DNA of 64,000 nucleotides from an archaeon. GTDB lineage: Archaea > Nanobdellota > Nanobdellia > Woesearchaeales > GW2011-AR15. Every line of letters starts with the position of its first letter. Positions within the stretch are counted from its first letter, which is position 1. The position numbers were made by a program, and so were the translations under genes. The stretch is from positions 15,202-79,201 of the forward strand of contig JAZDLQ010000017.1 in assembly GCA_043801855.1 (NCBI GenBank), written 5' to 3'. The notes beneath the pieces were generated by a model. The model was not told the DNA's origin and made no database searches. It saw only the letters and a program-made list of their open reading frames with translations. Below are positions 5,292 to 37,234 of the stretch, piece after piece.

Positions 5292-5293
5292 AA

Positions 5294-11978: not shown

Positions 11979-11992
11979 GAAAACAAACAAAT

Positions 11993-12088
11993 GGGCTAGT
12001 GGCCTAGCCTGGATAAGGCGTCTGCCTTCTAATTGGGTAAAACCAAAAAGTGAGCAGAACACCGGGGGTTCAAATCCTCCCTAGCCCA
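11993..12088 (+). tRNA. tRNA-Arg (anticodon UCU) with ~21-nt canonical intron after position 37; no encoded CCA
   Basis: Acceptor GGGCTAG/CTAGCCC + discriminator A. D-arm GCCT-AGCCTGGATA-AGGC. Anticodon stem TCTGC/GCAGA with loop CTTCTAA interrupted by ATTGGGTAAAACCAAAAAGTG. T-arm GGGGG-TTCAAAT-CCTCC. Confidence 0.7.
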
Positions 12089-12198
12089 TTTACTATTTTC
12101 TTACGAAATCAATTGTTATATTTGAAGATAATTTGAACACACAGTCACTTCGTTCCTGTGCGCTTCGTTTCACTCCGCGAATCCTCCCTAGCCCATTT
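12073..12198 (+). repeat. 19-nt direct repeat (AATCCTCCCTAGCCCATTT) duplicating the tRNA 3' end; copies at 12073-12091 and 12180-12198
   Basis: Exact 19-mer found twice, 107 bp apart. The first copy is the T-arm 3' strand + acceptor 3' strand + discriminator of the tRNA. Confidence 0.8.
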
Positions 12199-15181: not shown

Positions 15182-15586
15182 ATGTTAATGGAAGATTCAC
15201 TTTCAATGTTTAAAAATGATGACGTGGCACGAATAGTTGCATTAATTAATAGTGATGGACATTTACAAACAGGAAGAAGAAATCTTATCTCATTTTATTC
15301 AAAAGAATCAGATGAAATAGATTCAGCAAAAAATCTTGTTGAAAAGATATTTAAAATTAATGGAAAGATTTACAAAGACACTCGCGGTAACAGATATAAG
15401 CTTTTTTTTTATTCTAAAGCTGTGCAGATATGCTTATTGAATTGGGTGTTTCGCCTGGCAATAAGACCAATACTTCTTTTTTAGTACTTGACTGGATTTA
15501 TAATGGAAATTCCAATAGGGAACTTTGCAAAAATCATGTTTTATAGCGTGCGCATAGATAATCGAAATTATTAATGCGCACGATAT
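15182..15586 (+). pseudogene. LAGLIDADG-family homing endonuclease relic (single-domain, frameshifted)
   Basis: VALINSDGHL..RRNLISFYSKESDEID..LVEKIFKINGKIYKDTRGNRYKLFFYSK parallels the I-DmoI-type LAGLIDADG domain. The expected continuation ..ADMLIELGVSPGNKTNTSF.. lies in another frame after a T9 run. Confidence 0.4.
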
Positions 15587-15725
15587 ATTGGAGCGCAAAT
15601 AAAAATTTCTACGAATATTACGTGCGCTCCCTATACATGAAGAGCAAAAGCTCTCTCGACGTGAAAAATGTGCTGCAAAGTTATCTATACTCAAAGCGCA
15701 AAAATTGCGCTTTTCCTAATAGCAA
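15545..15725. repeat. three hairpins sharing a GCGC core (GTGCGCAT/ATGCGCAC; GGAGCGCA/TGCGCTCC; AAAGCGCAA/TTGCGCTTT)
   Basis: 8-9-bp perfect inverted repeats within 180 bp, directly after the LAGLIDADG relic. Confidence 0.5.
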
Positions 15726-15904
15726 AGGAATATATCCATTTGCTATATTAGGAGTTTGCAAAGTTTTTTGCAAACTTCTCTATACTCTTTAGCATTGTTT
15801 TCATATAGTTCATACCTTCTTGAATATTTATATTATTGTTTTTTTACTTATTTTCTTTTTTGTCTTACAATTGTCATACAATTATAATACAATATACAAA
15901 AACG

Positions 15905-15920
15905 TAATATTTATATACTA
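15905..15920 (+). promoter_or_regulatory. TTTATATA archaeal TATA-box candidate upstream of the RHH/surface-protein operon
   Basis: Exact TTTATATA at 15910-15917 in a 180-bp AT-rich stretch. Distance to the first ATG is ~70 nt. Confidence 0.3.
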
Positions 15921-15985
15921 CACAGATAATACAAAAATACAATTATTATACTAAAATGATTATCAGTATACTATTTTAGTCAAAA

Positions 15986-16144
15986 ATGGGTCCAAAAGCA
16001 GTAGTTGTAAACATAAGGCTTCCTGATAACATAATCTCCTGGTTGGATTCACTAGTTGAATCAGAGCTTTATAATTCAAGATCTGAAGCAATCAGAGCGT
16101 TCTCACGGGATTATGTTCTTAAAAACAGGGGTGGTGACAGATAG
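15986..16144 (+). CDS. ribbon-helix-helix (CopG/NikR-like) DNA-binding protein, 52 aa
   Basis: VNIRLPDNIISWLDSLVESELYNSRSEAIRAFSRDYV matches the RHH pattern (beta strand, then two helices with an SRSE motif). Below the ORF-track cutoff. Confidence 0.6.
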   Translation: MGPKAVVVNIRLPDNIISWLDSLVESELYNSRSEAIRAFSRDYVLKNRGGDR

Positions 16145-16167
16145 CTGACCAGATAATATCACTAAGA

Positions 16168-16404
16168 ATGCCAAAATCCCTTGTTGAAGAATTAAATAGT
16201 GTTGCAGATAAAAACCATTTTCTTGATATTAGTGAAGAAATCAGGTTTCTTCTTCGTGAAAAATATTTAAGCTATCATGATCCTTATGCATCAGAACTTG
16301 AAAAAATAAGAAATAATTTATCAAAAGTGACTGTTCCGGAAAAAGTTGATGCATTGAAAAAAGACCTGCAAAAGCTATTGGAGGGGCTAAATGACATCAG
16401 GTAG
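16168..16404 (+). CDS. second RHH-like small protein
   Basis: MPKSLVEELNSVADKNHFLDISEEIRFLLREKYL has the RHH N-terminal strand + helix pattern. Its 3' end overlaps the next gene. Confidence 0.45.
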   Translation: MPKSLVEELNSVADKNHFLDISEEIRFLLREKYLSYHDPYASELEKIRNNLSKVTVPEKVDALKKDLQKLLEGLNDIR

Positions 16405-19400
16405 GCTACTATCAAGAATTGTACTTTTAGCACTTTGTATAGCTGCGCTTTTAAATGCAAGCTCTCAGGTTGCGATAATTGATAATAGCACAATCTCAAT
16501 AGATGGTTTTGCATTTAGAAATATTGAAAATCAGGATTATAATGTAGCAAGCGCCGGTTCAATGGCTACGTTCTATGATATGTCTTACTATAATGGCTCA
16601 GGATTTTACCTTGGCGATATTGGAATGGGAACAGATGTTATTTATACCTCTGGATTGAATGCAACCCTTGTTGAAATTTCACTCGTTAAAAAAGAGCCTG
16701 GAAATGTTGATGCGCTACTTGCTTGTGATTATTTTGTTGAAGGATCTTTTGTATGCCAGAATTGGAGTATAGCTGACTTTGACTACGCAGAAAATGAAAC
16801 ACATGTTGTTTTTATAGCAGATTCATTTACTGCGATCGCCGGGCATATTGCTAAGGAGAATAATTTAAAAGAAACATTGCTTGACGTATGGCCGCAAACA
16901 ATTATCGGAAAGCCATATGGTGGAAAGGCCGCATATCCTGGAAATGTGTCTTATATTTATTCGAACTTTACAGATGGAGCATCAGGAGATATATTATCCG
17001 ATGGATTTTGCACAGCAACAGAAACAGTATCTAATTATACAATGATCTACGATTCAGCAAAAAAATTATTCACTTACGCAGTACTATATGATAATCCTGG
17101 AAACTATTCTTTTGGAATTTATTGTTGCAGTGAGGGATATTACTGTTCTAACAAATCAGTAGTCCTTGAAATAAGCCCTCTTATCTCAGCAAACGATACA
17201 CATCTAGACAATGATGGTGACGGGTATTCTTATATCTATGACTGTAATGACAACAACCCGAATATAAATCCCGGAAAAGTTGAAATATTATATAATGGAG
17301 TTGATGATGACTGCAGCAGTGCAACACTTGATTATTTCTTTTTTGATATCAGCACAAATAAGCTGACATATGGATTGGGCGAATCAGTTCAGGTAACAAT
17401 TAGGTCATACAATAATTCCGATGCATATATAACCATTAATTCGCCGTCAAATATTTCTTATGTGTATATATATGCTAATGATACTTATCCTAAAACTCTT
17501 ATTTTTTCACACACAAACAATTCAGGCAATTATTCAATAGAAGGAATTTCTTATTATAATAATTATACCATTTCAAAAGAGATTTCATTTGGCGTTGAAA
17601 ATAATCTTGTAGCCATTGCATCCGCAAACCAGACAGAAGCTTTTAAAAATAATAAGATTGGCTTTTTTGCATCAGCCTCAGGTGGAACCGCACCTTACAC
17701 ATACTCATGGAATTTTGACGACGGAACAGTTGTGTCTGAAAAAGATTTAGTGCATGCATTTAATTCTTCAAAAACTTATAATGTTCTGCTAAGAGTAAAA
17801 GACTACTTCGGAAACCAAAGAACGCAGACACTAACAATTTCTGTAATTGATGAGTATAAGCTTTTAGTGAAAGTAGTTGACAATAATACTAATGCTGCAA
17901 TTAAAAACATTAAAGTGAAGCTTGATAGTGATGCTAAATACACTAATTCAAGCGGGAGCGTTGAATTTAGGGTTGCATTAAAAACATATGATATAAAGCT
18001 ATCTCATGCAAATTACAGCACATACTCGGCTGAAATAAAAATAAATGGAACACATGATAAAGAGTATAGGCTTATAAGAGAAATAACTGGCCTTCCTCCT
18101 CAGATATTTGTCCAGTTGCCTTCTGATAATTCAGAGTATAAAAATAGAGATGTTGAATTTTCTTTCTATGTGATTGATGATACAGATTTAAACTGCACTC
18201 TTTACACTTCTTTTGGAGATTCATGGTGGACAGCTGAAAAAACATTTAGTAATTTAGTTTCTAATAAAGAGGCAAAGCACACTCTTTCTGGGCTAAAAAA
18301 TGGAGAATATTACTGGAAAATTGAATGTATTGATAAAGAAAAAAAGAGTGCAGAAACATCTGAATATAGTTTTACTATAAAAACAGAAGAAAAAAATTCT
18401 ATCGATACAGAGGTGGCTGATATAAACGAAACTTCATCAGCTGTGCAAAGTGTCTATGACCTGCTTCCAGATCTTGATTCTTACACACCTGATCAAAAAA
18501 GAGTGCTTGAATTACTGGATATTTACAATGTACTTGAAGAATCAAAAGTTGAGTTAGACAGGGCAAATAGAGATATGTTTAATCTGCGTTATAGGAAAGA
18601 TTTAATTGATCCAATTGGTGAATCTGAAAAAATAATTCAGCAAATAGCGGCAGTAAAGGATAAGACGCCAAGGTCAGTTACTGTTGAAGATAAGGTTGAA
18701 TTTATTAAATATGTTGATGATAAAGAGGCAGAAGAGTTAATAAATAAATATATTGATTTAAAAAATACACAACTTTCATCAGGAGATAGAAAAAAAATAG
18801 TTGATCAAAACAAGCTGCTCCAAAAAAAGATAACTGTATCCACAGAAAGCTATAATGTGAGAATAGAGTATCTTTCAGGTCGAATTAAAGAACTAACACT
18901 TATTAGCAAAAAATCTGATTACAACAGTGTTACTAATGGGAAATTTGTAGAATTTATTCCTGATGAAATAATAGGCTCTGCAGAATTATCTGTAATTACA
19001 GCATCTCCTGCCATTTTACAGGATGGCAGAATTTTTGAAATACCACAGGATGAAGCGCACACCTTATCTTATTCTATAAATAAAAAGATTTTACTTAGTG
19101 AAATACCAAAAATGAAATCATTACTTATAACGCTCGACGAGCAAAGTGAAATTAAAGAAGGAGGAACAATAACAGGGTTTGCGTTGTTTAATACGCAAGG
19201 CTCAAATAATAAAATTGTATTTTACATCGAAATACTGGTTATTGTAATCCTTGCAGGCATCTATATTTCATATCAATTTAGATATGGCGGAGCCGAAACT
19301 GTGAATGGCGTTCCTGAAACAGCCAAAAGCAAAGAGCCGGTTTCAAGCTATAATTTTTATGGCCAAGGCTTTAAAGCAATTGATAGCGCATCTTCTCTTC

Positions 19401-19723
19401 TTGAGAATGGAAATATTTCGGAATCTTCAATTAAATTTTCAGAAGCAAAATATCTTTTCAACAAAATGTCTGATTACCACAAGTCACTACTCTATCCAAA
19501 AATAATCCACTGTGCAAATAAAATCAATATCAAATACATGCATAGCTTAATTGATGACTGCTATATTAGGATGGCAGAAGGCAATATTGACGGCGCATTA
19601 ATATTATATCAGGAGATTTCAGAGGAATATGCTCTCCTTGATGAAAACTCTATAGAAAAAATTTATCCAAAAATATGCGAGTTAATTGTGGCTCTTGAGA
19701 TAAAAAAATTGAATTGTAATTAA
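16391..19723 (+). CDS. large type-I surface protein: signal peptide, Asp-rich metal-binding-like motif, PKD domain, C-terminal TM helix and ~150-aa cytoplasmic tail
   Basis: Signal peptide LLSRIVLLALCIAALLNASS, GGAGGGG RBS, DNDGDGYSYIYDCNDNNPNINPG..DDDCSS, PKD-like ASASGGTAPYTYSWNFDDGT..H.F...G.YNVLLRVKDYFGN, TM IEILVIVILAGIYISY. Very dense N-x-S/T sequons. Confidence 0.8.
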   Translation: MTSGRLLSRIVLLALCIAALLNASSQVAIIDNSTISIDGFAFRNIENQDYNVASAGSMATFYDMSYYNGSGFYLGDIGMGTDVIYTSGLNATLVEISLVKKEPGNVDALLACDYFVEGSFVCQNWSIADFDYAENETHVVFIADSFTAIAGHIAKENNLKETLLDVWPQTIIGKPYGGKAAYPGNVSYIYSNFTDGASGDILSDGFCTATETVSNYTMIYDSAKKLFTYAVLYDNPGNYSFGIYCCSEGYYCSNKSVVLEISPLISANDTHLDNDGDGYSYIYDCNDNNPNINPGKVEILYNGVDDDCSSATLDYFFFDISTNKLTYGLGESVQVTIRSYNNSDAYITINSPSNISYVYIYANDTYPKTLIFSHTNNSGNYSIEGISYYNNYTISKEISFGVENNLVAIASANQTEAFKNNKIGFFASASGGTAPYTYSWNFDDGTVVSEKDLVHAFNSSKTYNVLLRVKDYFGNQRTQTLTISVIDEYKLLVKVVDNNTNAAIKNIKVKLDSDAKYTNSSGSVEFRVALKTYDIKLSHANYSTYSAEIKINGTHDKEYRLIREITGLPPQIFVQLPSDNSEYKNRDVEFSFYVIDDTDLNCTLYTSFGDSWWTAEKTFSNLVSNKEAKHTLSGLKNGEYYWKIECIDKEKKSAETSEYSFTIKTEEKNSIDTEVADINETSSAVQSVYDLLPDLDSYTPDQKRVLELLDIYNVLEESKVELDRANRDMFNLRYRKDLIDPIGESEKIIQQIAAVKDKTPRSVTVEDKVEFIKYVDDKEAEELINKYIDLKNTQLSSGDRKKIVDQNKLLQKKITVSTESYNVRIEYLSGRIKELTLISKKSDYNSVTNGKFVEFIPDEIIGSAELSVITASPAILQDGRIFEIPQDEAHTLSYSINKKILLSEIPKMKSLLITLDEQSEIKEGGTITGFALFNTQGSNNKIVFYIEILVIVILAGIYISYQFRYGGAETVNGVPETAKSKEPVSSYNFYGQGFKAIDSASSLLENGNISESSIKFSEAKYLFNKMSDYHKSLLYPKIIHCANKINIKYMHSLIDDCYIRMAEGNIDGALILYQEISEEYALLDENSIEKIYPKICELIVALEIKKLNCN

Positions 19724-19724
19724 G

Positions 19725-22700
19725 ATGAAAAATAAGCTAAATAAAAAAAGTATTGACAATCTACTTGAAAAAACACTCATTATTTTAGTTTTATCTATAT
19801 CGTTCATGTCTTTATTGTTCTTCAGGGATTTCATTGGATTTGCTTCCTTCCATGCTGCAAGAGGCGGTCAGATATCAGAAATCAATCTTGCGCAGGAAGA
19901 GCCTGCAGAATATTGGAATGGAATCTATGGCTTAGTTATTATGTTTCCTGCAATCAATAATACATGGTCAGTGCTTACGGAAAATGCTGGAATGAATCAG
20001 CTAGTAATGCTGGTGCCATGCCTGCTTGGAGGCCAAGAAAACGAGCTATATGCTGCGAATGTAACATCAGAACAAATAGAATGGGAAAATGTTGTTGCTG
20101 CGGATGCTGAAATCGTTGATGAATACCTTCAGATAAATTCTGGATCACTTATATCAGCAAATAAGACGTTTACAGATACTATGACTATTGAACTTGGTAC
20201 CAGAACAATTTATGATATCCCTATGGTTCACACTTACCAGCGTGATGATCATAACAGCGAAGTGTTTTCGCATGGTGTCTTAACAGATGGAGAGCACATA
20301 ATATTAGTTGCAAAAGTAACAGAAGGATATCCTATGGGATTTGATGGAAACCTTTACAATTACCAGATGTTTGTGCCTGTTCCTTTAAACAGGACAGTCA
20401 GATATTATATATTGACGGATCCATATGACACCTGTCCGGCAGGAGAAGATGTAGGATTAGGAACCGGATATGTATCTGGCTGGGTGACAGACAACTCAAC
20501 TGGGCTTCCGATTGAGAATGCAGAAGTATTTGTCGGAAAAAGTAGTGCTGTTAGTGATGAAGATGGATACTATAATTTTTCTGTCACAGAAGGCACATAT
20601 AAAATAATAGGAATAAAATATGGCTATAACAATTATATAAGTAATATTACTGTCTATTACAGCAATTATACTGAGCATAATATATCAATGACATTATATC
20701 AGGAGCCGCTTACAGGGATAGGTTCAGGTGTCGGTACTGGAGTTGGCCCTGGTCAAACCGACAAGACAAGGACAGGTGTCGGCCCAGGAGTTGGTCCAGG
20801 AGTTGGTCCAAATATCGGACCATATCTAGAAAAACCAGAGCTAATGGGCATAGATCATTTTATTACTCTTGACAAAATTGATAAAAAAATAAGATTGGAC
20901 AATTTCTTTACAGAGACTGTTTTTCTCTATAGTTTTAGGAAAGAAAATGCACTTGTCCAAATAAGGCTTAATGGAAATGTAACAGAAATTGTCGAGATAG
21001 ACAAAGAATCTGTAACAATTGAGCCAAATGGCGTTGCAAATGTGACTGTCACAGGATTCGGAAAAGAGATTGGTGAATATATTGGATCTCTTGACTTTGG
21101 CGGTGATTTTAACGACAGCCTTCCGATTAAAATTAGAGTAACAGATGAAGATAAGCTTCCAGTTGAAGCGCTTCTTATGGAGCTTGAGCTATTGACGCCT
21201 CATCCATATGCTGGTGATTTATACAAATTTAAGCTCAATCTTCATAACATGCTTATTGAAGAAAGGTATAACATTTCTCTCAAATATAAAATCCAAGGTA
21301 TTGAGGCAAGGACATCAAATTATTCAATGGAATTAGAACCAGAAAGTGTTGCAATCTTAACAACAGTATCTCTAATTAAGCAATTTAACATACCGAAAAA
21401 TTGGCCGAAAGGAGAATACCTTCTTGACATTGAGGCCGAGTATCTGGATCTTTATTCAAAAACATCAACTGTTTTTAATGTATATGAGCCTATTTATATG
21501 TATAAGCTTTTTGGAGTTCTTGAGTTATGGAAATTGTTTTTAGGAATTCTTTGCCTTGCAATAATTGTATTTGGTGTGATATTTATTAGGAGGCATATTG
21601 AATCGAAAAAGAGATTCCATGGAAAAGTCGAATATAAATTGCTCCCAAAAAAAGGGCCAAGGTCATTGTATATCGGAAAAATAGCTGAAACTGAAAATGA
21701 TACTTACATGGATATGGATGTATTAACAGTTCACTCAATAATTGCTGGTTCAACAGGCGGCGGTAAATCCATTTCCGGTCAGGATATAGTAGAAGAATGC
21801 CTGCTGAAAAATGTTGCAGTGATAGTTTTTGATCCTACAGCTCAGTGGAGCGGAATGCTCCGAAAATGCTCCGACAAAAAGATGATGGAATTTTATCCAA
21901 GATTTAATATGACGCCAAAAAGCGCAAGAGCTTTTTCCGGCAACATCAGAGCAATTAAAGACCCAAGAGAAAAAGTTGACCTGATGAAATACCTTAAGCC
22001 TGGAGAAATTCAGATATTTACAATGAGCACCCTTGACCCAAAAGGAATTGACATTTTTGTTGCAAATACCGTGAGGGCAATTTTCCAGTCAAACCTTCAG
22101 GAATATAGGGGGCTTAGATATATGATGGTTTACGATGAAGTCCACAGGCTTCTTCCTAAATTTGGCGGAAGTGGCGAAGGCTTCATCCAGATCGAAAGAG
22201 CATGCAGGGAATTCAGAAAATGGGGAATAGGTGTAGTTCTTATTTCCCAAGTCCTGGCGGATTTCGTAGGTCAAATCAAAGCTAACATTAACACAGAAAT
22301 CCAGATGAAAACAAGAGATGAAGGAGATCTTGCAAGAATCGAAACTAAGTATGGAAAAGAATTTTTACAGGGATTAGTAAAGGCGCCAGTTGGTTCAGGA
22401 ATGCTGCAAAATTCGGCATGGAATAGAGGTAAACCGTATTATGTCACATTCAGGCCGATCATGCACAGCGTAACAAGATTGACAGATGAGGAGCTATCAT
22501 TGTACAATAAATATAATGAGATGGTTGATGACTTATCTTACCAGATAGACCAGCTTGAAAAAGAAGAATTAGATGTTTTTGATTTGAGGCTAGAATTAAA
22601 GTTATCTCTTGATAAGATAAAAACTGGAAGTTTTAACATGGTTGATATTTATCTGGAAGGCTTAAAGCCTAGGCTTGAAAAAATGTGGAAGGATCTTGGA

Positions 22701-23555
22701 AAAAAACCTAAAAAAAGAACTTTAGAACTTGTGTCTGAAGATGATATAAAGGCAGATATTGCAGCAGCTCAAAAATCAAGAGAGCAATATGAAAAAGAAA
22801 AAGGGCCCTCTGCCGGAGGAGAAGAAAAAAAAGGCCCTGCATCATTAGGGTTTAATGACGAAGTTCCTCCTGATAAGCTCCTTAACCTCTCAAACGGAAT
22901 GATTGTAATAAGTATGAAAGGGCTTTATGATGAGCTTGTTCCGATGAAAGATTCAGATTATAAAAATGAAGTAAATGAAAACAAGAACACTTTTGCAAAC
23001 TGGATCAGAACAGCATTAAATAGTCCAAAGCTTGCTGATATCGCTGATAATATTATTGCAAAAGAAGATTATCTTGCATTTTTCGATTCAATAAAAGCAG
23101 GAACAGGTGAAAAATTCAAGCCAAAAGCGCCAAGGCCACCAAAGGAGGCAGCAGCACCAGTAGCAGGCTCAGCACCAGTGGCAGCAGCGACACAAGCAGC
23201 ATCTATTGCACCAGTTTATCCTGCAATAGTTCAACCTGTTGCTCAGCCTTCGGTACAAAATTTGCAAGAACAGTCTACGCAGGCAAATGCGTCTTCAGGG
23301 CAATCAGGAGTTGCTCCTCTTGAATTATTCGACGGTACCAGAATTAATAGTTTAAAAGATTTGTTTGAAGCATTGTCAAAAATAGATGATGATACATTTA
23401 TGCTCTACGTTAATGAAGGAAACAATGAATTTGCAGAATGGATAAGAACAAGCCTTAAAGATGAGGCTTTTGCAAATGAAATTTCATCGCTAAAAACAAG
23501 AGAAGAGCTGAAGAAAAAAGTAGAAGAGAAATTAAAAGTCTTAAAAGTTGGTTAA
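19725..23555 (+). CDS. membrane-anchored HerA/FtsK-superfamily (DUF87-like) ATPase with ~600-aa extracellular N-terminal domain and two C-terminal copies of the novel docking domain
   Basis: N-terminal TM. CarboxypepD_reg-like beta-sandwich (GWVTDNSTGLPIENAEVFV..DGYYNF). Elastin-like GVGPG repeats. Second TM LGILCLAIIVFGVIFI. Walker A AGSTGGGKS, Walker B MVYDEVHRLLP, RKWGIGVVLISQ and NTEIQMKTRDEGD motifs typical of HerA/DUF87. Pro/Ala-rich linker. Confidence 0.8.
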   Translation: MKNKLNKKSIDNLLEKTLIILVLSISFMSLLFFRDFIGFASFHAARGGQISEINLAQEEPAEYWNGIYGLVIMFPAINNTWSVLTENAGMNQLVMLVPCLLGGQENELYAANVTSEQIEWENVVAADAEIVDEYLQINSGSLISANKTFTDTMTIELGTRTIYDIPMVHTYQRDDHNSEVFSHGVLTDGEHIILVAKVTEGYPMGFDGNLYNYQMFVPVPLNRTVRYYILTDPYDTCPAGEDVGLGTGYVSGWVTDNSTGLPIENAEVFVGKSSAVSDEDGYYNFSVTEGTYKIIGIKYGYNNYISNITVYYSNYTEHNISMTLYQEPLTGIGSGVGTGVGPGQTDKTRTGVGPGVGPGVGPNIGPYLEKPELMGIDHFITLDKIDKKIRLDNFFTETVFLYSFRKENALVQIRLNGNVTEIVEIDKESVTIEPNGVANVTVTGFGKEIGEYIGSLDFGGDFNDSLPIKIRVTDEDKLPVEALLMELELLTPHPYAGDLYKFKLNLHNMLIEERYNISLKYKIQGIEARTSNYSMELEPESVAILTTVSLIKQFNIPKNWPKGEYLLDIEAEYLDLYSKTSTVFNVYEPIYMYKLFGVLELWKLFLGILCLAIIVFGVIFIRRHIESKKRFHGKVEYKLLPKKGPRSLYIGKIAETENDTYMDMDVLTVHSIIAGSTGGGKSISGQDIVEECLLKNVAVIVFDPTAQWSGMLRKCSDKKMMEFYPRFNMTPKSARAFSGNIRAIKDPREKVDLMKYLKPGEIQIFTMSTLDPKGIDIFVANTVRAIFQSNLQEYRGLRYMMVYDEVHRLLPKFGGSGEGFIQIERACREFRKWGIGVVLISQVLADFVGQIKANINTEIQMKTRDEGDLARIETKYGKEFLQGLVKAPVGSGMLQNSAWNRGKPYYVTFRPIMHSVTRLTDEELSLYNKYNEMVDDLSYQIDQLEKEELDVFDLRLELKLSLDKIKTGSFNMVDIYLEGLKPRLEKMWKDLGKKPKKRTLELVSEDDIKADIAAAQKSREQYEKEKGPSAGGEEKKGPASLGFNDEVPPDKLLNLSNGMIVISMKGLYDELVPMKDSDYKNEVNENKNTFANWIRTALNSPKLADIADNIIAKEDYLAFFDSIKAGTGEKFKPKAPRPPKEAAAPVAGSAPVAAATQAASIAPVYPAIVQPVAQPSVQNLQEQSTQANASSGQSGVAPLELFDGTRINSLKDLFEALSKIDDDTFMLYVNEGNNEFAEWIRTSLKDEAFANEISSLKTREELKKKVEEKLKVLKVG
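20722..20820 (+). repeat. elastin-like (G)VGPG tandem repeats encoded in the ATPase gene
   Basis: GVGTGVGPGQ...GVGPGVGPGVGP at the nucleotide level is GGTGTCGG/GGAGTTGG repeated. Confidence 0.6.
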
Positions 23556-23557
23556 AT

Positions 23558-23779
23558 ATGGTAAATGAACTGATTAAAATTTTTGAAAACAGACGCAGTA
23601 ATTTAGTGAAGTTGCTTGACAATGCAAGGGATGATATGGATGCAGGCAAGCAACATCAGCTCTATGGCGCAATACTGGAGATTGACAATGTGCTTGAGGC
23701 AATGCAGGATTTGCACTGTAAAAATATTTCAAAAAAATTATGTGATCGAAAAGATAACTTATTGAGGCTTAAATGCTGA
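23558..23779 (+). CDS. small helical protein
   Basis: 73 aa, 3 nt after the previous stop. No motif. Confidence 0.4.
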   Translation: MVNELIKIFENRRSNLVKLLDNARDDMDAGKQHQLYGAILEIDNVLEAMQDLHCKNISKKLCDRKDNLLRLKC

Positions 23780-23780
23780 T

Positions 23781-24590
23781 ATGGAAGAAGAAATACCTCC
23801 TGAAAAGTATTTTTATGTACATGATGGAACAATAATAAGATGTATTGATGAGCTTCCGATATACCTTACGAGTATGGATGAGCAGATATTTGTATTCCAT
23901 GTAACTGAAGAAAAAAATGACTTTGCATCCTGGATAATGGGTGTTTTTAACGAATCATTGCTTGCCGAAAAAGTACAAAATTCCAAAACAAAAGACGAAA
24001 TGATTAATATAATAGGAGAATACATGGAAAGCAAAATTGTCCTCTCTGTTAATAATTATAACTCTATCAATGCAGATCAGCCAGCGCAGCAGATACATTC
24101 TTCTTTAGAAAAATATGAAAAAGAAATTTCTGAGCACGGCAATGAAGAACTAAATGGTTTGAAATCTGAGGAGTTAACGGCAATCGACTCGCTAAATCTT
24201 TCAAAAGAGGCTCTGGAAATAAATTCATTAACTACAAATCAAGAACCTGAAAAAATTAAGAAACAAGAAGATCAAAAAACAATATTGAATCAAAATGATA
24301 CAAAAGATAATTACATATATACCTACAAAAGAGGAGAAAAAAATCAAAATAGCATAATTTCAAAAGCATTTTTTTTTCATTATGATGAGTTAAAAAAGAA
24401 AATTTCTGAAAAAAGAAAAAAGGGATATGATACTAGCCATTGCAATTTGTTAATTATGCAAATTCCTTCAAAAATCAAGCTGCTTGAACACTTTTTTTCT
24501 GAAAAAGAGTCGCTGAAGCTCATACACTTATTTTATATTATTAATGAAGAATTAAATATACTTACTAAAAAGGAGATGGTGTTGGCGTGA
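23781..24590 (+). CDS. soluble protein with N-terminal docking domain (F.FHV..EKNDFASWI)
   Basis: N-terminal 75 aa align to the C-termini of the 1276-aa and 1493-aa proteins. The C-terminal LIHLFYIINEELN is shared with the next ORF. Confidence 0.6.
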   Translation: MEEEIPPEKYFYVHDGTIIRCIDELPIYLTSMDEQIFVFHVTEEKNDFASWIMGVFNESLLAEKVQNSKTKDEMINIIGEYMESKIVLSVNNYNSINADQPAQQIHSSLEKYEKEISEHGNEELNGLKSEELTAIDSLNLSKEALEINSLTTNQEPEKIKKQEDQKTILNQNDTKDNYIYTYKRGEKNQNSIISKAFFFHYDELKKKISEKRKKGYDTSHCNLLIMQIPSKIKLLEHFFSEKESLKLIHLFYIINEELNILTKKEMVLA

Positions 24591-25279
24591 AACAAAATAA
24601 GACAAAAACAATTCAAAAAATTGATAAAAATAAAGGTAATAAGGAGTTTATTACGTGCACTGGCCAGAAAATAAAAACACTTATGAGCCTTCCGATTGCG
24701 CTTCGTACAATGGATGACATGTGTTTTTCAGCGCACGTGAATGAAAACAAAAATGATTTTGCAGAATGGGTCATTAATGAAATTGGACAAAAGAACTTAG
24801 GAGAAAGAATGCAAGAGCATAAAGATAAGGCATCGCTCCTTAAATTCCTAGTTGATTACCTTGCAGACAAAACCTTAATTCAGGAAGAACTGCAAAATGG
24901 TAGCATGGCTAATGAAAAAATACCTGTTGGCTTTTTTCAAAATTTAATCTATAAGATAAAAAAGACTCTTCATCTAAAGCAAATTGTTAAACCCAATTTA
25001 AGCGAAGCCATACGTGGAAGGCTTTTTATTAGTAAAGTTAAAGATATATCTGATTTGGAAGTAATATTTAGCGAGTCGCTTGAGGAATACAGGTGGAAAG
25101 TATATAGCTTAAAAAGCCGTGGCGAGAACACACAGGAGTGCCAGCTTTATCTTGGAACAACAGAGATGAAGATTAGAGAATTTGGCCAATATGTAAATGA
25201 AAAAAATGCAATAGATATCCTTCATTTATTCTATTGTCTGGATGATGAAATAAAAAAGCATGAAAATTCCAAGACCTAG
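24587..25279 (+). CDS. paralog of the previous ORF (docking-domain protein)
   Basis: ALRTMDDMCFSAHVNENKNDFAEWVINEIG at the N-terminus and ILHLFYCLDDEIK at the C-terminus. 4-nt start/stop overlap with the upstream gene. Confidence 0.6.
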   Translation: MKQNKTKTIQKIDKNKGNKEFITCTGQKIKTLMSLPIALRTMDDMCFSAHVNENKNDFAEWVINEIGQKNLGERMQEHKDKASLLKFLVDYLADKTLIQEELQNGSMANEKIPVGFFQNLIYKIKKTLHLKQIVKPNLSEAIRGRLFISKVKDISDLEVIFSESLEEYRWKVYSLKSRGENTQECQLYLGTTEMKIREFGQYVNEKNAIDILHLFYCLDDEIKKHENSKT

Positions 25280-25348
25280 ATTTATAAACTAGATTAAAAT
25301 ATCAAGATATCACAGCAATACTTGTAATTATTAAAAAAGAGGTTGAAT

Positions 25349-26449
25349 ATGTGGCCGTTTAAGCCAAAATTTGCAAGAATAGAAGACCAGCAGGAAAAAA
25401 AAGAGGATGAGTCAGCGGTAGCTGCGCCTAGCAATGATGATTTTCAAGGGAAATCTTCTGATTCTATGCTTGGCGCTGAAATTATGAAATTAAAAGCGCA
25501 GTTTGACCAATTTTCAGAGCTTCGAAAAGTATTTAATGAACGCTTTACAAGAATAAACGAGCAGATTGGGGAACTTCGTGGAATGATAATGGATACTAAT
25601 CGTTCCATGCAGGATGTAGAAGTAAAAACTGTAAAAGCAGTTGACTTGGTAAGCGCAGTTCAGCCAGATAAGCTAATGGTTGAAGTAAAAAAGCAGGATG
25701 CAAAAATTGAGGCACTCAAAGCTAATATAGAAAGTAACGAAGCTATTATGAAATCAATTCTTGACCAGCTAAAAGATATGAGAATACAAGTGTCAAAATT
25801 CAGAGGAGTTGACCAGATTGTTTCTTTATCTGAAGATGTAAAAAAAGAGCTGATGAACATCAAAAAAGTAGAGGCAACTCTTGAGCGACACTCTGATAAG
25901 GTTGAAGGAATATTTATGGAATCACAAAAACGGTTCCAGGATTTTGAGAGAGTTGTAAACAAGCAGGCGGACTTTGACAAGCAGGTGAAAGCAATTCAAG
26001 AGCAGTCTGATCAGCTTAAAATTAAGATTCCCGTTTTTTCAACAAAAAAGGAGATGGAAGATCTTCAGGGTAAATACAATGAATTTGAAAAACACACTGC
26101 AAATGTAATTGATCTTGTTACAAAAAGAGCAAATGATCTTCCTGTCGAGATAAACGACAGATTTGCTCGCTTTGAAAAAAATATAAACAGTGCATTTGAA
26201 AAAAAGATAAGAAAAACAGATGAAACAAATAAATTGATTTCAGAAATTGAAAAAAAAGCACAGAAAATTGCCAAAGAATTAAAACTTCACCAGGCAACCA
26301 CTGAAAAAAAAGAGGAAGGAGCGTCTCTAATAAATTCAGATATGCCAAAAGCTGAAAATAAGGATGAAGCTCCATCAAAAGAGGCAACTGAAAAAAAAGC
26401 AAGATTCTTAGAAGGGCTGTTTAAGAAAAAAGAGAAAGAAAAGAAATAA
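25349..26449 (+). CDS. coiled-coil protein
   Basis: ~366 aa dominated by heptad-like K/E-rich segments. The listed ORF starts at TTG 25343, but ATG 25349 (MWPFKPK) with an upstream GAGG is more likely. Confidence 0.5.
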   Translation: MWPFKPKFARIEDQQEKKEDESAVAAPSNDDFQGKSSDSMLGAEIMKLKAQFDQFSELRKVFNERFTRINEQIGELRGMIMDTNRSMQDVEVKTVKAVDLVSAVQPDKLMVEVKKQDAKIEALKANIESNEAIMKSILDQLKDMRIQVSKFRGVDQIVSLSEDVKKELMNIKKVEATLERHSDKVEGIFMESQKRFQDFERVVNKQADFDKQVKAIQEQSDQLKIKIPVFSTKKEMEDLQGKYNEFEKHTANVIDLVTKRANDLPVEINDRFARFEKNINSAFEKKIRKTDETNKLISEIEKKAQKIAKELKLHQATTEKKEEGASLINSDMPKAENKDEAPSKEATEKKARFLEGLFKKKEKEKK

Positions 26450-30045: not shown

Positions 30046-30915
30046 ATGGAAAATCAAAAATCAGAGATTCTAAAAAATAATTCTATTACAGACACAGCGC
30101 TCGATTACGATGCAGCAACGCATATAGGCTCGTCGCAGGGAGAAGGCTTACCGCAAAATAAAGTCTACACAATGAAATACCTAAAAACAGGAGTTCCTGG
30201 TTTTGATGAGCTTATTGATGTTGGTATTCCTCGTGGCTCGCAAGTTCTTATATCAGGCGGGCCTGGGACGTCAAAAACTACTTTTTGCCTGCAGCTTCTT
30301 GTACATGGGGCAAAAAACAATGAAAAATGTCTTTTTTTGTCTTTTGAAGAAGATACAGAAAAGCTAATTTATTATATGAGAAAATACGGCTGGGATCCTG
30401 ATGAGCTTATAAAAAATGGTAATCTATTAATAAAAAAGCTTGACCCATTTAAAATTTCAAGAAGCGTTGAGACTCTTTTGGCACAAGCAAGAGGAGAGCT
30501 TTTAATTGAGACAAACCAAGTTAAGGATTTAATACCAGATGATTTTATTCCGGACAGAATTGTTCTTGATTCACTATCTGCTGTTGCGGCAGGATTTTTT
30601 GGAAAAGACGAAGGCTATAGGGCTTACATCAGCCAGATATTTGATACCTTTAGAAAAATTGGGGCAACTTCATTTTTAATTTCAGAAATAGAGCACTCGA
30701 CAACTAAATACAGCCAGTCTGGAGTTGAGGAATTTTTAGCTGATGCGGTTTTTGTCTTTTATAATCTGAGGCAAGGAACACAGAGGATTAACGCAACTGA
30801 AATTGTGAAAATAAGAGGGACATCACATAAAAAAAGAATAGTTCCGTTTAAGATTAATTCAGGAAAAGGCGTTGTTGTATATCCTATGGAAGAATTATTT
30901 TTTGATGATAAATAA
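30046..30915 (+). CDS. KaiC/RadA-like single-domain ATPase
   Basis: GVPGFDELIDVGIPRGSQVLISGGPGTSKTTFCLQLLVHG (KaiC-type Walker A) and downstream LDSLSAV core strands. 289 aa. Confidence 0.75.
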   Translation: MENQKSEILKNNSITDTALDYDAATHIGSSQGEGLPQNKVYTMKYLKTGVPGFDELIDVGIPRGSQVLISGGPGTSKTTFCLQLLVHGAKNNEKCLFLSFEEDTEKLIYYMRKYGWDPDELIKNGNLLIKKLDPFKISRSVETLLAQARGELLIETNQVKDLIPDDFIPDRIVLDSLSAVAAGFFGKDEGYRAYISQIFDTFRKIGATSFLISEIEHSTTKYSQSGVEEFLADAVFVFYNLRQGTQRINATEIVKIRGTSHKKRIVPFKINSGKGVVVYPMEELFFDDK

Positions 30916-30968
30916 TAATTAGCTTGAATATTCGAACTATATTTATGAACCAAAAAAAGAGGTGAAAA

Positions 30969-33900
30969 TTGGCAGAAAAAAAGTTAGCTAAAAAATCAAT
31001 ATTATTTATGCTAGCTTTTGCTCTGCTTATCTTTTTAATTATTTTTTCACTGCCGCAGATTTTTGCGCCAGCAGGAAGAATCTGCAATTCAACATCACCC
31101 TGCGCATGCGGCAGCGCCTGCAACTCTGGCAATGAAGTTTCAAATGGATATAATACTATAGACAGCTGTCGGGATGGCCCAAATTATAATTACGAATGGA
31201 TCCACGATATTAATATAACAAACCAGAACGACTCTGTTTTTAACGGGCACGATACTGTTCAAGCAGATGCTTTCTTAAACTGCGATCTTGACGGCGATTC
31301 TGTTTCTTTTGCTTATAATAACGGCAGCGGCTGGAAAAATGTGGGTGATGCAACATGCTCTGTTGACGGATATTCACATAGATACCAAAATATAACTTTA
31401 GATAATGTAAGAGGATATCACACAATAAGGGTAATAATTTCGCCTACTGCGTATGGCGGAAGAACTGGGATGACGTGCGGATACACTTATGATACAGGAT
31501 ATTCTGATTCAGATGATGTTAGCCTTTACGTTCTTTTATCAGGTCAGGTAGTGGATTTAGTGATGCCATCAGTAAGAAACTTAAATCCATCAGGCACTGA
31601 ATTCAATTACCAAAACAATCTTGTAATTAATATTTCAGCAAACGTCTCTGATAATATTAACGTAAGCACAGTTTTCGCAAATGTTTCCTGGTCAACAAAA
31701 AATGAGTTAATAAGCCTTGCGCATGTTGGAAATGGGATTTATCTTGGCAATTTTACAAACACAAGTTTTCTTGGCATCTACAATTATACTCTAATTGCAA
31801 ATGATACTTTAAACAACATAAACCAGACAGTAAAAAATTATTTCATAATCAATATGACTTCAAATATTACAGTTTACTCTCCTGTTTCAAACAGCGTTTA
31901 CAAATATCAGGAAACTGATTTCTTTTTTGAGATACCTGCTTTATATGGAGCAGATTTTGTGTGGTATTATTTAGAAGGATATTCTACTGAATTTGCAAAC
32001 GATAATTACAAGCTGTCTTTTGAAGAAAGCGGAAGCGAAGAAGAAGAGATCTCCCAGGCAAGCGTTGATTTAACAAATATCTCGCAGTCGTTTGCTACTG
32101 TTTATGGAATGAATATAAACAAAATCTCACTTAAGATTAAAAAAACAGGAAACCCTGAGAACTCAACTGTTGAAATAAAGGATAATTCAGGCTATCCGCT
32201 AAATAATGCAATTGCAACTGCAAACATAACTTCAGATGATGTTTCTGAAGGATCTTTTGAATGGGTTAACTTGACATTTAACCAGACTGTTTCTTTAAAC
32301 GCAGATACAACTTACTGGATATATTTAATTTCAAATGGAACTGAACAAAATTTTTATGAATTTGAGATAAATTCACAAAGCGCATATGCTGGCGGAAACT
32401 TAAGCAACAATGCAACAAAAGATATGCTCTTTAGGCTATATGACAATAAAAAATACCTGATAAGAGATATTGATTTGGAAAGGCAGGAATATAATGTCCA
32501 ATTTTTTGCAAACCATTCTGTTTTTCCGCAGATTGAATCCGAATACATTACTTTTATTGTAGATTATACTCCTCCTGTGATAAGCGATCTAACTTACACA
32601 CCTTCAGATAGCGATGGGCTTGATCCAGGCACTCCAATAAATGTATCATTGATGGTTTCAGATGAGCTGGCAGGAGCAAATGCTACCCTTCGTTATATGC
32701 ATGAAGATGATGATGACTGGTCAGTTTTTGAGATGGAAAATAAGACTGGTTATTTTGAAGGGAATTTTACGCCTGATAGGGAAGGCCAATGGTATTTTTC
32801 GATTTATGTAATTGACTCTTCATTTAATGATGATTCAATTGAAAACAATGAGCTTGACGTGCGCTATGAATACAACTGGTCAATAACACCAAATGTATTT
32901 AATTCAACAGGCGGAATGCTTGGCACAAATATAACAATTGGGACTCTATTGATAAATAATAGCGCGGACTTTACATATGAATTCAATGTATCGCCTCTCC
33001 AGGCATCTCCTATAATTTATATCAATGAATCAGTCCAGAGATTAATTACACTAGATCCAGGAGAAACAATTTCATATCAGATAATAGGAACTACAAAAAA
33101 TTCGCTTTCAACAGATTATATAAATATATTAGTTGATGCGCAAAACGACACAGCATCACCGCAATCTTATTACAGTAATATTACATTGATATCTGTTTTA
33201 AGCGGCCCATTTTTGCATGTTGATATTGTAGACTATTCATCAACTGTTGTCCAGGGAAGCCATGTAAATACAATCAAGGCAAGAATAACAAATGTTGGAA
33301 ACGAGACAGCTTTTAATGTCAGTGCAAACTGGACTCTTCCAGAAGGATGGACAAGCAGGGAAGCAACAAACCTTACTTATGATAATATATCTTCTGGCGG
33401 TTATGACTCAAAAGAATATACAATTAGCGCTGATGTTTCATCGAGTGCGCCATTAGGTGCAGCCCTGATTGAAATTATTGTAAACTGCAGTGAAGGAAGC
33501 AGTGATTCTGACACAAGAACTGTTACTGTTACATCAGCTAGCCAGGATGATAATAACCAAAATAATAACAATAATAATGATAACAATGGAGGCGGTGGCG
33601 GTGGCTCAACAGGCGGCGGCTCAACAGGCGGTGGCTCAACTGTTTATGTGCGTGACCCAAAGCTTGAAATAAATATATCTGATTTTGAAATTATCCGCGG
33701 CCAAAAAAAAGAATTTGCTTTTAGCATCATGAATAATGTATCTGATATAATATTTGGTTCTATAAATTTTAGCATTGAAGGCCTTTATAAAAATTATTAT
33801 AATATCACACCAAATGAAATATTGAACTTTAGCTATGAGGAAAAAGAAGAGATAAAAATCATCATAATTGCGCCAATCTATATGCAGGCAGGCAAGCATG

Positions 33901-35450: not shown

Positions 35451-35463
35451 AGGATTTGCAAAA

Positions 35464-36804: not shown

Positions 36805-36805
36805 G

Positions 36806-37234
36806 ATTATGAAAAATAAAAGTGATTTTGTATTTGAAAACTTAGAGGATTTGAAAGCGTATAAAGTTGGAGGAGTAGCAGGTTACTTCTATCTTGAGAT
36901 GTTTAATAATAGCGGCATAAAATATGATTATTCAGATAATGAAGCTGATTCGCTTCAAAAACTTGTAGCAGGGAGAATTGACCTTCTGCCTTTCACAACA
37001 TCAAATGGATGGGATCTAATTCGCAGCAAATATCCAGATGAGGCCAGCAATTTTGGCACATTAGACAAGCCGCTTGACTCAAATAGCATTGGATTGATAA
37101 TTTCGAAAAATTACCAAAGCTCAAATGAGTTGTTAAGCCAGTTTAACTCAGCCGTTAGGAAAATTGTTGAAAATGGAAAATATCAGGCAATACTTACAGC
37201 ACACGGACAGCAAGAAGGAAGTATAATTGAGTGA
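36806..37234 (+). CDS. truncated solute-binding-protein-like (SBP_bac_3 C-lobe-like) domain protein, no signal peptide
   Basis: DSLQKLVAGRIDLL..NGWDLI...IGLIISKNY..LLSQFNSAVRKIVENGKYQAI resembles the second lobe of amino-acid-binding proteins. GGAGA/GAGGTGA RBS before ATG 36806. Confidence 0.45.
   Translation: MMKNKSDFVFENLEDLKAYKVGGVAGYFYLEMFNNSGIKYDYSDNEADSLQKLVAGRIDLLPFTTSNGWDLIRSKYPDEASNFGTLDKPLDSNSIGLIISKNYQSSNELLSQFNSAVRKIVENGKYQAILTAHGQQEGSIIE

Follow-up and report, generated by a model that had tools for sequence, protein, structure and literature searches.

Introduction

The closest described relatives of the protein reported here are the SPEARE surface proteins. It is a 1276-amino-acid (aa) product encoded at positions 19,725 to 23,555 of the forward strand in a 64,000-nucleotide (nt) stretch of contig JAZDLQ010000017.1 (hereafter the window, meaning the whole stretch that was analyzed). 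The SPEARE giants of Nanohaloarchaeota have been in print since 2019. The 2019 paper assigned their conserved intracellular region to a type III restriction enzyme domain, reported similar sequences in Woese-, Aenigm- and Micrarchaeota and in Altiarchaeales, listed a protein from 'Euryarchaeota archaeon SM23-78' in Table S3, and printed the sequence of the Candidatus Nanohaloarchaeum antarcticus (Nha) SPEARE in the supplement (PMC6642349). In a 2023 paper, the chain is described as starting with a signal peptide, followed by about 75 immunoglobulin (Ig)-like domains and a transmembrane (TM) helix and, in the cytosol, by a VirB4/TraG-like ATPase and a terminal coiled coil; at the SVXNc and BNXNv loci, the gene of another ATPase of the VirB4/TraG family is located immediately downstream, and a type-IV-like 'straw' for effector injection is proposed (PMC10266531). 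The labels given in the two papers are in conflict, i.e., restriction enzyme and protease in the former (PMC6642349) and VirB4/TraG secretion ATPase in the latter (PMC10266531). Another described system to be considered is Ced, in which DNA is imported between archaeal cells in contact and CedD is required for this import (PMC11868833). A search of the literature on HerA, DUF87 or FtsK in DPANN archaea or Woesearchaeota retrieved nothing relevant.

A first-pass annotation of the window had tentatively placed the protein in an undescribed apparatus. It is, instead, a clear homologue of the Nanohaloarchaeota giants and, judging by its sequence, almost certainly belongs to the SPEARE family, as a compact representative encoded by a Woesearchaeota-type archaeon. 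With reference to the available sections of both SPEARE papers, what appears to be new is the assignment of the motor to the HerA clade without a HAS-barrel, a distribution that covers 586 species or more, the continuous range of ectodomain sizes, and the conserved operon with its coiled-coil and ORFY-like partners.

Results

Relationship to the SPEARE proteins

In a BLASTP comparison, the last 476 residues of the Nha SPEARE aligned with residues 541–984 of the query with 40% identity over 454 aa (E 6e-113), and the motifs DPTAQWSG, VYDEVHRLL.KFGGSG and REFRKWG were common to both proteins. This alignment, the published order of parts and the recovery of the same homologue taxa are the grounds for placing the protein in the family. 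From the N-terminus, its parts are a signal/anchor helix, a ~560-aa sequon-rich ectodomain, a second TM helix (TM2), a HerA-clade ATPase, a helical bundle and two DUF5752/ORFY-like copies; the giants are described with the same order, from a signal peptide through an adhesin-type ectodomain and a TM helix to a P-loop ATPase in the cytosol and a helical tail. The membrane-proximal Ig domain, the TM helix, the ATPase and the helical region are homologous between them and, in both, the TM helix is directly ahead of the cytoplasmic conserved region, with the N-terminal part outside. The taxa named for the intracellular homologues in PMC6642349 are those recovered here, and the SM23-78 metagenome-assembled genome (MAG) of its Table S3 is our locus L056, which encodes a full-length homologue with 46% identity. 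The homologue searches also sustained the initial proposal that the DNA comes from a DPANN archaeon of Woesearchaeota type.

The giants differ in having 3300–9400 aa, versus 1276 aa here, and a laminin-G ectodomain, whereas Pfam detected no Laminin_G domain in the window protein, which contains Ig-like adhesion-type domains. Moreover, no second ATPase gene is found downstream in the window, and the tail is composed of DUF5752/ORFY-like repeats. Since the N-terminal extensions of the family span 0–5642 aa, size is a poor criterion for SPEARE membership. The weak ResIII (PF04851) matches from which the restriction enzyme label derives are also present in the precomputed Pfam lists of the family, and they reflect the common P-loop.

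Laminin-G, a hallmark of SPEARE ectodomains, occurs elsewhere in the window. An open reading frame (ORF) of more than 5090 aa (48729–64000, + strand) runs off the window end and has a signal-like N-terminus, at least four Laminin_G_3 domains and DUF2341. It was compared with the family as a candidate second SPEARE, but its resemblance to some of the ATPase-terminated giants is limited to laminin-G-type repeat similarity (26–32%), and its C-terminus lies beyond the window.

Gene structure and membrane topology

The ORF coordinates of the first-pass annotation were exact, and all the motifs it had named were located: AGSTGGGKS at residues 674–682, YDEVH at 803–807, RKWGIGVVLISQ at 831–842 and NTEIQMKTRDEGD at 856–868, along with the GVGPG-rich stretch (~330–366) and the Pro/Ala linker (~1126–1193). 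The features of the gene are listed below in window coordinates, and the models mentioned were generated with AlphaFold (AF2).

19725..23555, + strand: whole ORF of the SPEARE-type protein, ATG start, 1276 aa
19773..19835, + strand: TM1, residues ~17–37, signal-anchor or cleaved Sec signal peptide (hydropathy 2.11, Lys-rich n-region)
19911..20444, + strand: family-specific beta-rich N-terminal ectodomain, residues ~63–240 (AF2 predicted local distance difference test, pLDDT, mostly >88)
20463..20693, + strand: CarboxypepD_reg/transthyretin-like domain, residues 247–323 (Pfam match at 250–323)
20706..20846, + strand: GVGPG-rich disordered linker, residues 328–374 (pLDDT <50; kept in the family consensus)
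20856..21485, + strand: two membrane-proximal Ig-like (PapD/ASH/MSP-type) sandwiches, residues 378–473 and 483–587 (AF2 model)
21516..21587, + strand: TM2, residues 598–621 (hydropathy 2.85, then RRHIESKKRFHGK)
21642..22484, + strand: HerA-clade P-loop ATPase, residues 640–920 (Pfam, PDB and PADLOC matches; AF2 fold)
22485..22814, + strand: C-terminal helical bundle of the motor, residues 921–1030 (four long helices in the AF2 model; mean conservation 0.66)
22851..23099, + strand: DUF5752/ORFY-like copy 1, residues 1043–1125 (domain hidden Markov model, HMM, E 2.6e-34)
23304..23552, + strand: DUF5752/ORFY-like copy 2, after the Pro/Ala linker, residues 1194–1276 (domain HMM; short Pfam DUF5752 match at 1230–1260)

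Kyte-Doolittle hydropathy analysis identified two membrane segments, at residues 19–37 and 603–621, which is the number initially predicted. The N-terminus is Lys-rich and RRHIESKKRFHGK is found directly after TM2, a charge pattern that fits an in/out/in topology; TM1 may be a cleaved Sec signal peptide instead of a stable helix. In residues 40–598, 14 N-x-S/T sequons were counted, versus 4.6 expected from shuffled sequences. The same analysis was extended to 45 homologues taken from a full-length homologue search, where low-complexity words probably dominated the selection of candidates: their ectodomains summed 777 sequons versus 301 expected, their cytoplasmic parts 45 versus 63 expected, and the bias toward the ectodomain was present in all 45. 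The alignment of 46 sequences, on which the motif and conservation figures of this work are based, showed two conserved Cys residues in the ectodomain, C237 being invariant and C99 nearly so. The sequon enrichment, the conserved Cys pair and the topology signals make the extracytoplasmic location of residues 40–598 a well-supported prediction. The outward-facing ectodomain of the first-pass annotation was thus borne out by hydropathy, the positive-inside pattern and the sequons, the topology check having placed the N-terminal domain outside and not in the cytoplasm. Only ~45% of the chain is outside the cell.

The HerA-type motor

The Pfam model DUF87, the HerA central domain, matched residues 649–712 with a score of 37.7 bits versus a cutoff of 23.2. 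The AF2 model of residues 622–1040 (pLDDT 88, predicted TM score 0.87) contained a RecA-like core followed by four long helices, and its top fold match was Sulfolobus HerA (4d2i, E 5e-12), with the Sir2-HerA and HerA-NurA complexes and DndH next in the ranking. The TcpA coupling protein (number 15), the FtsK motor (E 1e-8) and EccC were found lower in the list. When the PDB was searched with the ATPase region, either as a single sequence or as a profile, the significant motor matches were all HerA proteins, and the PADLOC models HerA and mad8 matched the ATPase with a best E of 3e-15. The NCBIfam models ranked HerA first, then CedD, then TraC/TraD/VirB4, all of them far under their cutoffs (24.1 bits versus 600 for CedD; 15–18 bits versus 567–590 for TraC and VirB4).

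The catalytic residues of the motor are found in the Walker A (G675–S682), the Walker B (D804/E805), the ERACREFRKWG block and the strand-end Gln (Q842), and these elements were invariant or nearly so in the alignment. By alignment, we take the E.RK.G block to be the one that carries the arginine finger in HerA. The mean column conservation was 0.76 in the ATPase, the highest in the protein, versus ~0.5 in the ectodomain.

In the 1276-aa protein, the FtsK_SpoIIIE Pfam model stayed below threshold, the CagE_TrbE_VirB N-terminal domain had no Pfam match, the T4SS-DNA_transf and TrwB models gave no match at E ≤ 0.01, and no nuclease domain was found. Faint TrwB_AAD_bind, T4SS-DNA_transf and AAA_10 matches are included among the precomputed Pfam matches of family members. 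Collectively, the sequence comparisons and the predicted fold assign the motor to the HerA clade, closer on both counts to HerA than to VirB4/VirD4. The HerA/FtsK class given in the first-pass annotation was therefore correct, and the ATPase motifs did align to this family; as for the individual profiles, DUF87/HerA was recognized above its cutoff, and VirB4 and FtsK remained below threshold.

TM2 ends at residue 621, only ~53 residues ahead of the Walker A (G675), and the HerA alignments of the motor begin at about HerA residue 108–136, past the HAS-barrel. Given this short spacing and the starting point of the alignments, the motor lacks the HAS-barrel and has the membrane helix in its place.

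Comparison with other translocases

Archaeal HerA, a DNA end-resection translocase (4d2i, 9x1m), and the HerA proteins of bacterial defense gave the best matches to the RecA core, and the Walker A and B, the E.RK.G block and the strand-end Gln are shared with them. They differ from the window protein in that a TM helix replaces the HAS-barrel here, in its membrane-embedded nature with an ectodomain, and in the partners: none of NurA, Mre11, Rad50, Sir2 or DUF4297 was found among the neighbors with Pfam and PADLOC.

CedB and CedD are similar in having a TM helix followed by a HerA-clade ATPase, they belong to a machinery of archaeal DNA import (PMC11868833), and CedD is weakly matched in NCBIfam. 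However, a score of 24 bits versus 600 indicates that the window protein is not an orthologue. The Ced proteins are devoid of a large ectodomain, and their VirB4-like N-domain, polytopic CedA channel and CedA1/A2 pilins had no counterpart here, no polytopic or pilin-like (CedA, CedA1, CedA2-type) neighbor of the ATPase gene being found.

The type IV coupling proteins (VirD4/TraG/TrwB, TcpA) have the same layout of inner N-terminus, TM helix, outside loop, TM helix and nucleotide-binding domain, and TcpA is among the fold matches. Nonetheless, their outside loop has tens of residues versus ~560 aa here, the type IV secretion system (T4SS) context is missing in this locus, and the Pfam models of coupling proteins gave faint or weak matches in relatives only. 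Finally, FtsK/SpoIIIE and Streptomyces TraB are membrane-anchored ring DNA pumps of the same superfamily, in agreement with the FtsK fold match, but their four N-terminal TM helices, long linker and gamma (winged helix-turn-helix) domain are absent from the window protein, which has two TM helices at most.

Ectodomain and C-terminal repeats

The AF2 monomer model of residues 38–600 had a pLDDT of 82, and fold searches with it retrieved generic sandwich domains only. The beta-rich N-terminal ectodomain (~63–240), characterized in the family by the conserved C99/C237 and a TDPxDxCPxG motif, gave no specific match in these searches.

The two C-terminal domains reported in the first-pass annotation are real, and they are two copies of one ~80-aa domain with the signature F..HV....ND/TF..WI. 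Five copies of this unit were found in four proteins of the window (22851–23099, 23304–23552, 23781–24044, 24623–24871 and 35184–35447): apart from the two described here, it is N-terminal in the products of the downstream genes d269 and d230 and forms the C-terminal end of a 1493-aa protein (30969–35450). Copy 1 was present in 36 of the 45 homologues, and those without copy 2 were the ones with TPR annotations in Pfam. A profile search with the 80-aa repeat returned four short proteins only, and the lead in the PDB was a weak match to the 4cso 'ORFY protein' (E 3e-4 over 24 residues). This T. tenax protein, deposited as a 'transcription factor', holds two copies of the 80-aa unit, and Pfam DUF5752, with 208 positions, seems by its sequence to be a tandem pair of it. 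The domain is thus a cytoplasmic module that is conserved both at the tails of surface proteins and in soluble partners; a 'docking' role for it is a guess.

The operon and its conservation

The ATPase gene is the fourth of an eight-gene cluster on the same strand (15986–26449, + strand), whose other members are as follows.

15986..16144, + strand: RHH52, first gene, 52-aa ribbon-helix-helix (RHH) protein of CopG type (Pfam RHH_1, E 4e-4, 20.6 bits versus a cutoff of 20.5)
16168..16404, + strand: s78, 78 aa, with an N-terminus judged RHH-like by eye; its end overlaps the PKD1110 start by 14 nt
16391..19723, + strand: PKD1110, bitopic partner of 1110 aa (MopE, PKD and CarboxypepD_reg in Pfam)
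23558..23779, + strand: s73, 73-aa predicted helical protein, no significant Pfam match
23781..24590, + strand: d269, soluble protein with N-terminal DUF5752/ORFY-like domain (domain HMM, E 2.6e-41)
24587..25279, + strand: d230, paralogue of d269, likewise with an N-terminal DUF5752/ORFY-like domain (domain HMM)
25343..26449, + strand: cc368, last gene, 368-aa coiled-coil protein (43–64% identity in L001–L003)

Locus comparisons were performed with the best 80 of at least 586 relatives. Three homologues on long contigs (40–61% identity) showed the same gene order as the window operon, and most of these 80 loci, where flanking sequence was available, contained the RHH pair, the PKD gene directly upstream and the coiled-coil gene downstream, all on the same strand. 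RHH52 homologues were found ~3 kb upstream of the ATPase gene in most of them; s78, which had no significant Pfam match, precedes the PKD gene in loci L001–L003 and in most of the 80. Homologues of PKD1110 are always directly upstream of the ATPase gene (with 23–43% identity in L001–L003) and, in the window, the two genes are separated by one base. The d269 homologues are downstream of the ATPase gene in many loci, and BLAST found s73 homologues in close relatives only. These data confirmed the upstream PKD/MopE/CarboxypepD_reg protein and the domain-sharing downstream proteins noted in the first pass, and the envelope-associated gene cluster was conserved across L001–L003 and the best 80 loci. 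In the available sections of PMC6642349 and PMC10266531, an eight-gene operon with the RHH pair, the PKD partner and the coiled coil is not described.

PKD1110 contains a signal peptide, a ~900-aa sequon-rich ectodomain, a TM helix at 942–960 and a 150-aa cytoplasmic tail, and 26 of its 27 sequons are before residue 680. Members of the cc368 family start with MGLFGKKK or MFWFKKKK, and many of them end with GLFGKLFKKK; these hydrophobic-basic motifs look like membrane-targeting sequences. Beyond the family, only generic coiled-coil matches to cc368 were obtained in the PDB and Pfam. The resemblance of its N-terminus to ESCRT-III/PspA proteins was also considered and this candidate was rejected, as no Snf7 or PspA model matched any of 35 members.

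Pfam analysis of the operon and of the window ORFs of at least 100 aa revealed no VirB2, VirB3, VirB6 or VirB8-like genes, and the downstream ORFs s73, d269, d230 and cc368 contained no ATPase domain. With PADLOC, the other operon proteins gave a single marginal match, of cc368 to a restriction-enzyme model (E 6e-4). In the region ahead of the operon (15182–15985), an ORF of 100 aa is weakly matched by LAGLIDADG_3 (E 7e-4) and is probably what remains of a homing endonuclease; it is followed by ~500 bp of very AT-rich DNA with no convincing gene, where TATA-like runs are found just upstream of RHH52.

Spread and architecture of the family

Among species-representative genomes, at least 599 matching stretches were detected, and at least 586 were confirmed as encoding a relative. 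This survey of homologous fusions and their neighborhoods, suggested in the first-pass annotation, thus yielded both a wide distribution and a conserved operon. The best 80 relatives are all from Woese-, Pace- or Nanoarchaeota-type MAGs, a few of them with obviously wrong labels. As to deposited names, 'uncultured Methanosarcinales archaeon' is given for many operon-bearing MAGs (L004, L009, L013–L015, L043 and others) and 'Candidatus Saccharibacteria bacterium' for one of them, and these records are probably mislabelled. A search with the ATPase core retrieved 313 relatives, with Micr-, Alti- and Aenigmarchaeota among the source names, and 371 clusters at E ≤ 1e-30 came out of an exhaustive HMMER scan that covered 1.84 billion representative proteins.

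Architecture was analyzed in 144 of the 150 best matches of the exhaustive scan. The ATPase was always C-terminal in these 144 relatives, and in 137 of 141 family representatives it was immediately preceded by a hydrophobic (TM) helix. The N-terminal extension ranged from 0 to 5642 aa, with a median of ~860 and 41 cases above 2000 aa, the longest relative having 6253 aa; these extensions are sequon-rich, with up to 7.8 sequons per 100 aa. The source names of giant versions include Woesearchaeota, Aenigmatarchaeota, Nanoarchaeota and Hadarchaeales.

In Micrarchaeota loci, a fused ORF of ~2000–2460 aa is followed by a coiled-coil homologue with 30–36% identity to cc368. On one 1.2-Mb contig from Micrarchaeia (L086, 1–10961), a 2462-aa ectodomain-TM-HerA fusion starts a gene row that continues with two ~100-aa proteins with multiple hydrophobic segments, a 417-aa soluble HerA-type paralogue and the coiled-coil homologue. 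By analogy, this arrangement recalls the CedB/CedD pair with its small membrane proteins, as well as the second downstream ATPase of the nanohaloarchaeal loci. One short single-TM relative adjoins the gene of a TPR-AAA protein, and a ParA/MinD-like gene is beside the coiled-coil gene in the locus of one relative. No relatives were found in the viral contigs of IMG/VR, and this, together with an operon fixed across lineages, led us to reject a viral or mobile-element origin.

A second membrane module and other genes of the window

Downstream of the operon, another module on the same strand (30046–37234, +) includes the following genes, together with two more that encode a helical bitopic protein of 457 aa and a protein of 152 aa.

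30046–30915, + strand: KaiC-like ATPase, 289 aa, possibly an associated module
30969–35450, + strand: 1493-aa bitopic surface protein with a DUF5752/ORFY-like end, possibly an associated module

The 1493-aa protein has 50 ectodomain sequons and a cytoplasmic coiled-coil tail that ends in the DUF5752/ORFY-like domain. In L001 and L051, close homologues of this protein and of the KaiC-like gene come after the HerA operon, at a distance of a few kb downstream, and weaker KaiC-like matches follow the operon in L012, L013 and L015. In the window, opposite-strand phosphoenolpyruvate carboxykinase and aminotransferase genes are placed between the operon and the module. The pair is possibly associated with the HerA operon.

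The 64 kb contain three KaiC/RecA-like ATPase genes, at 30046–30915 (+), 46035–46745 (−) and 47208–47735 (−), the last one with a weak DUF7504 match as well. The only tRNA gene of the window is tRNA-Arg(TCT) (11992–12089, +), which is long at 98 nt and may hold an intron. At 2424–5971 (+), a gene for an SNF2-family helicase (955 aa, DUF3670) is directly followed by that of a SWIM zinc-finger protein (225 aa).

Discussion

The wide spread of the family, the fixed order of the operon and the coiled-coil partner kept in Micrarchaeota suggest a conserved machine and not a stray fusion. By analogy with its characterized relatives, we propose, as a tentative reading to which we give somewhat less than an even chance, that this machine is a membrane-flush ring translocase under an adhesin, and that it moves nucleic acid, DNA over protein. 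The direction of transport would probably be import. Characterized HerA/FtsK-type ATPases are hexameric rings, and reduced archaea of the DPANN kind are expected to need external nucleotides. Nucleic acid is favored because the closest characterized relatives, i.e., HerA and, weakly, CedD, act on DNA, because the conserved genes of the operon include two small ones of RHH type, and because of this expected need.

In the proposed mechanism, the Sec-targeting N-terminus would put the ~560-aa N-glycosylated ectodomain, made of generic beta-sandwich modules, outside the cell, and TM2 would bring the chain back to the cytoplasm, where the HerA-clade ATPase begins ~25 residues later. A hexamer ring would then sit flush with the membrane and hold six ectodomain stalks arranged about a common axis; using the energy of ATP hydrolysis, it would pass a polymer through its center at the site of cell contact. 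Adhesion would be provided by the variable ectodomain and the co-translated PKD protein. Partners or the substrate could be recruited by the helical bundle, by the tails of DUF5752/ORFY-like or TPR type and by the two soluble proteins with the DUF5752/ORFY-like domain. The cc368 protein may scaffold the assembly on the inner membrane face via its terminal amphipathic motifs, and the two RHH-type proteins may regulate the operon or hand over DNA.

Several observations weigh against this translocase. No polytopic channel (VirB6/CedA-like), pilin, relaxase or nuclease was found in the operon or the window, and with one or two helices per protomer, i.e., 6–12 per hexamer, there would be few of them to build a pore that conducts DNA. 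Ig-like domains in strings form stalks and not conduits, and the length of the ectodomain varies ~100-fold, both of which disfavor ectodomains forming a defined tube. In addition, the RHH proteins may simply be autoregulators.

A type-IV-secretion-like export, where the ATPase would drive unfolded effectors through or along the adhesin into the host, is the alternative that fares best, although we consider it unlikely. It is in print for SPEARE (PMC10266531) as the 'straw', and it draws on the TM-loop-TM-ATPase layout similar to that of type IV coupling proteins, on the faint TrwB_AAD_bind, T4SS-DNA_transf and AAA_10 matches in family members, and on the presence of the FtsK-class EccC and of TcpA among the fold matches. 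However, the motor is nearer to HerA than to VirB4/VirD4 in both sequence and fold, the CagE_TrbE_VirB N-domain was not detected with Pfam, and VirB2, VirB6 and VirB8-like genes are missing from the operon and the window. The second VirB4/TraG-type ATPase gene reported downstream at nanohaloarchaeal loci has no equivalent here, and no candidate effector was identified.

The ring ATPase could also act with no passage through the membrane, as an organizer or mechanical transducer that clusters, tensions or remodels surface proteins and the coiled-coil scaffold. The extremely variable size of an ectodomain built of stalk-like Ig modules would be expected from such a device, as would the few TM helices with no channel partner, the conserved cytoplasmic scaffold parts (tails of TPR or DUF5752-like type and a coiled coil whose ends look like membrane-targeting sequences) and the second surface protein with the same tail domain. 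We regard it as rather improbable, nonetheless: characterized HerA/FtsK-class ATPases thread polymers, to our knowledge none is an adhesion motor, and the very strong conservation of the motor (0.76 versus ~0.5) fits a defined substrate.

Little probability is assigned to an FtsK-like handling of the chromosome, in which a membrane-anchored DNA pump would operate at division, with the coiled-coil and RHH proteins as positioning or centromere-binding factors. Near-ubiquity in the lineages and a fixed operon resemble a housekeeping role; RHH-type proteins and a coiled coil of membrane-binding type are encoded in the operon, and the ParA/MinD-like gene beside the coiled-coil gene in one relative points in the same direction. 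Yet there is no evident reason for such a pump to carry a large ectodomain that is glycosylated and hypervariable and can reach 5600 aa, and both a linker between membrane and motor and an FtsK gamma-type DNA-recognition domain are lacking. Anti-virus defense by a membrane HerA platform analogous to Sir2-HerA or DUF4297-HerA was rejected as very improbable, since the PADLOC matches of the ATPase (best E 3e-15) are to the generic HerA and mad8 models only, and, even if the best PDB sequence matches include HerA proteins of defense systems, there is no Sir2, DUF4297 or NurA-like effector partner, the other operon proteins have no meaningful PADLOC matches, the operon has a fixed, lineage-wide occurrence and not a patchy one, and relatives are absent from the viral contigs of IMG/VR.

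Returning to the translocase that would move nucleic acid, a broader conjecture, which we hold to be doubtful, is that the eight-gene operon is the minimal core of a DPANN-wide contact machine that imports host nucleic acid as a nucleotide supply, the giant SPEAREs being elaborations of this core. Its parts would be the HerA-type ring with six adhesin stalks, the bitopic PKD partner, the membrane-bound coiled-coil scaffold and the ORFY-like adaptors, and the two RHH DNA-binding proteins would feed or receive DNA.

The SPEARE proteins are a leading genomic candidate for the uptake of host material by DPANN archaea. The same TM-plus-motor module is found behind ectodomains of ~0 to ~5600 aa across Woese-, Pace-, Micr-, Aenigm- and Altiarchaeota, and even in Hadarchaeales, and the 1276-aa version has the same conserved core as the giants, a core that is modelled with high confidence. 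The compact size of this version and its small partners make biochemistry on the soluble ~420-aa motor domain practical, and the conserved partners, i.e., the two RHH-type proteins, the bitopic PKD protein, the ORFY-like proteins and the coiled coil, are candidates for binding tests. The compact version could, in this way, serve as a tractable model for SPEARE function.

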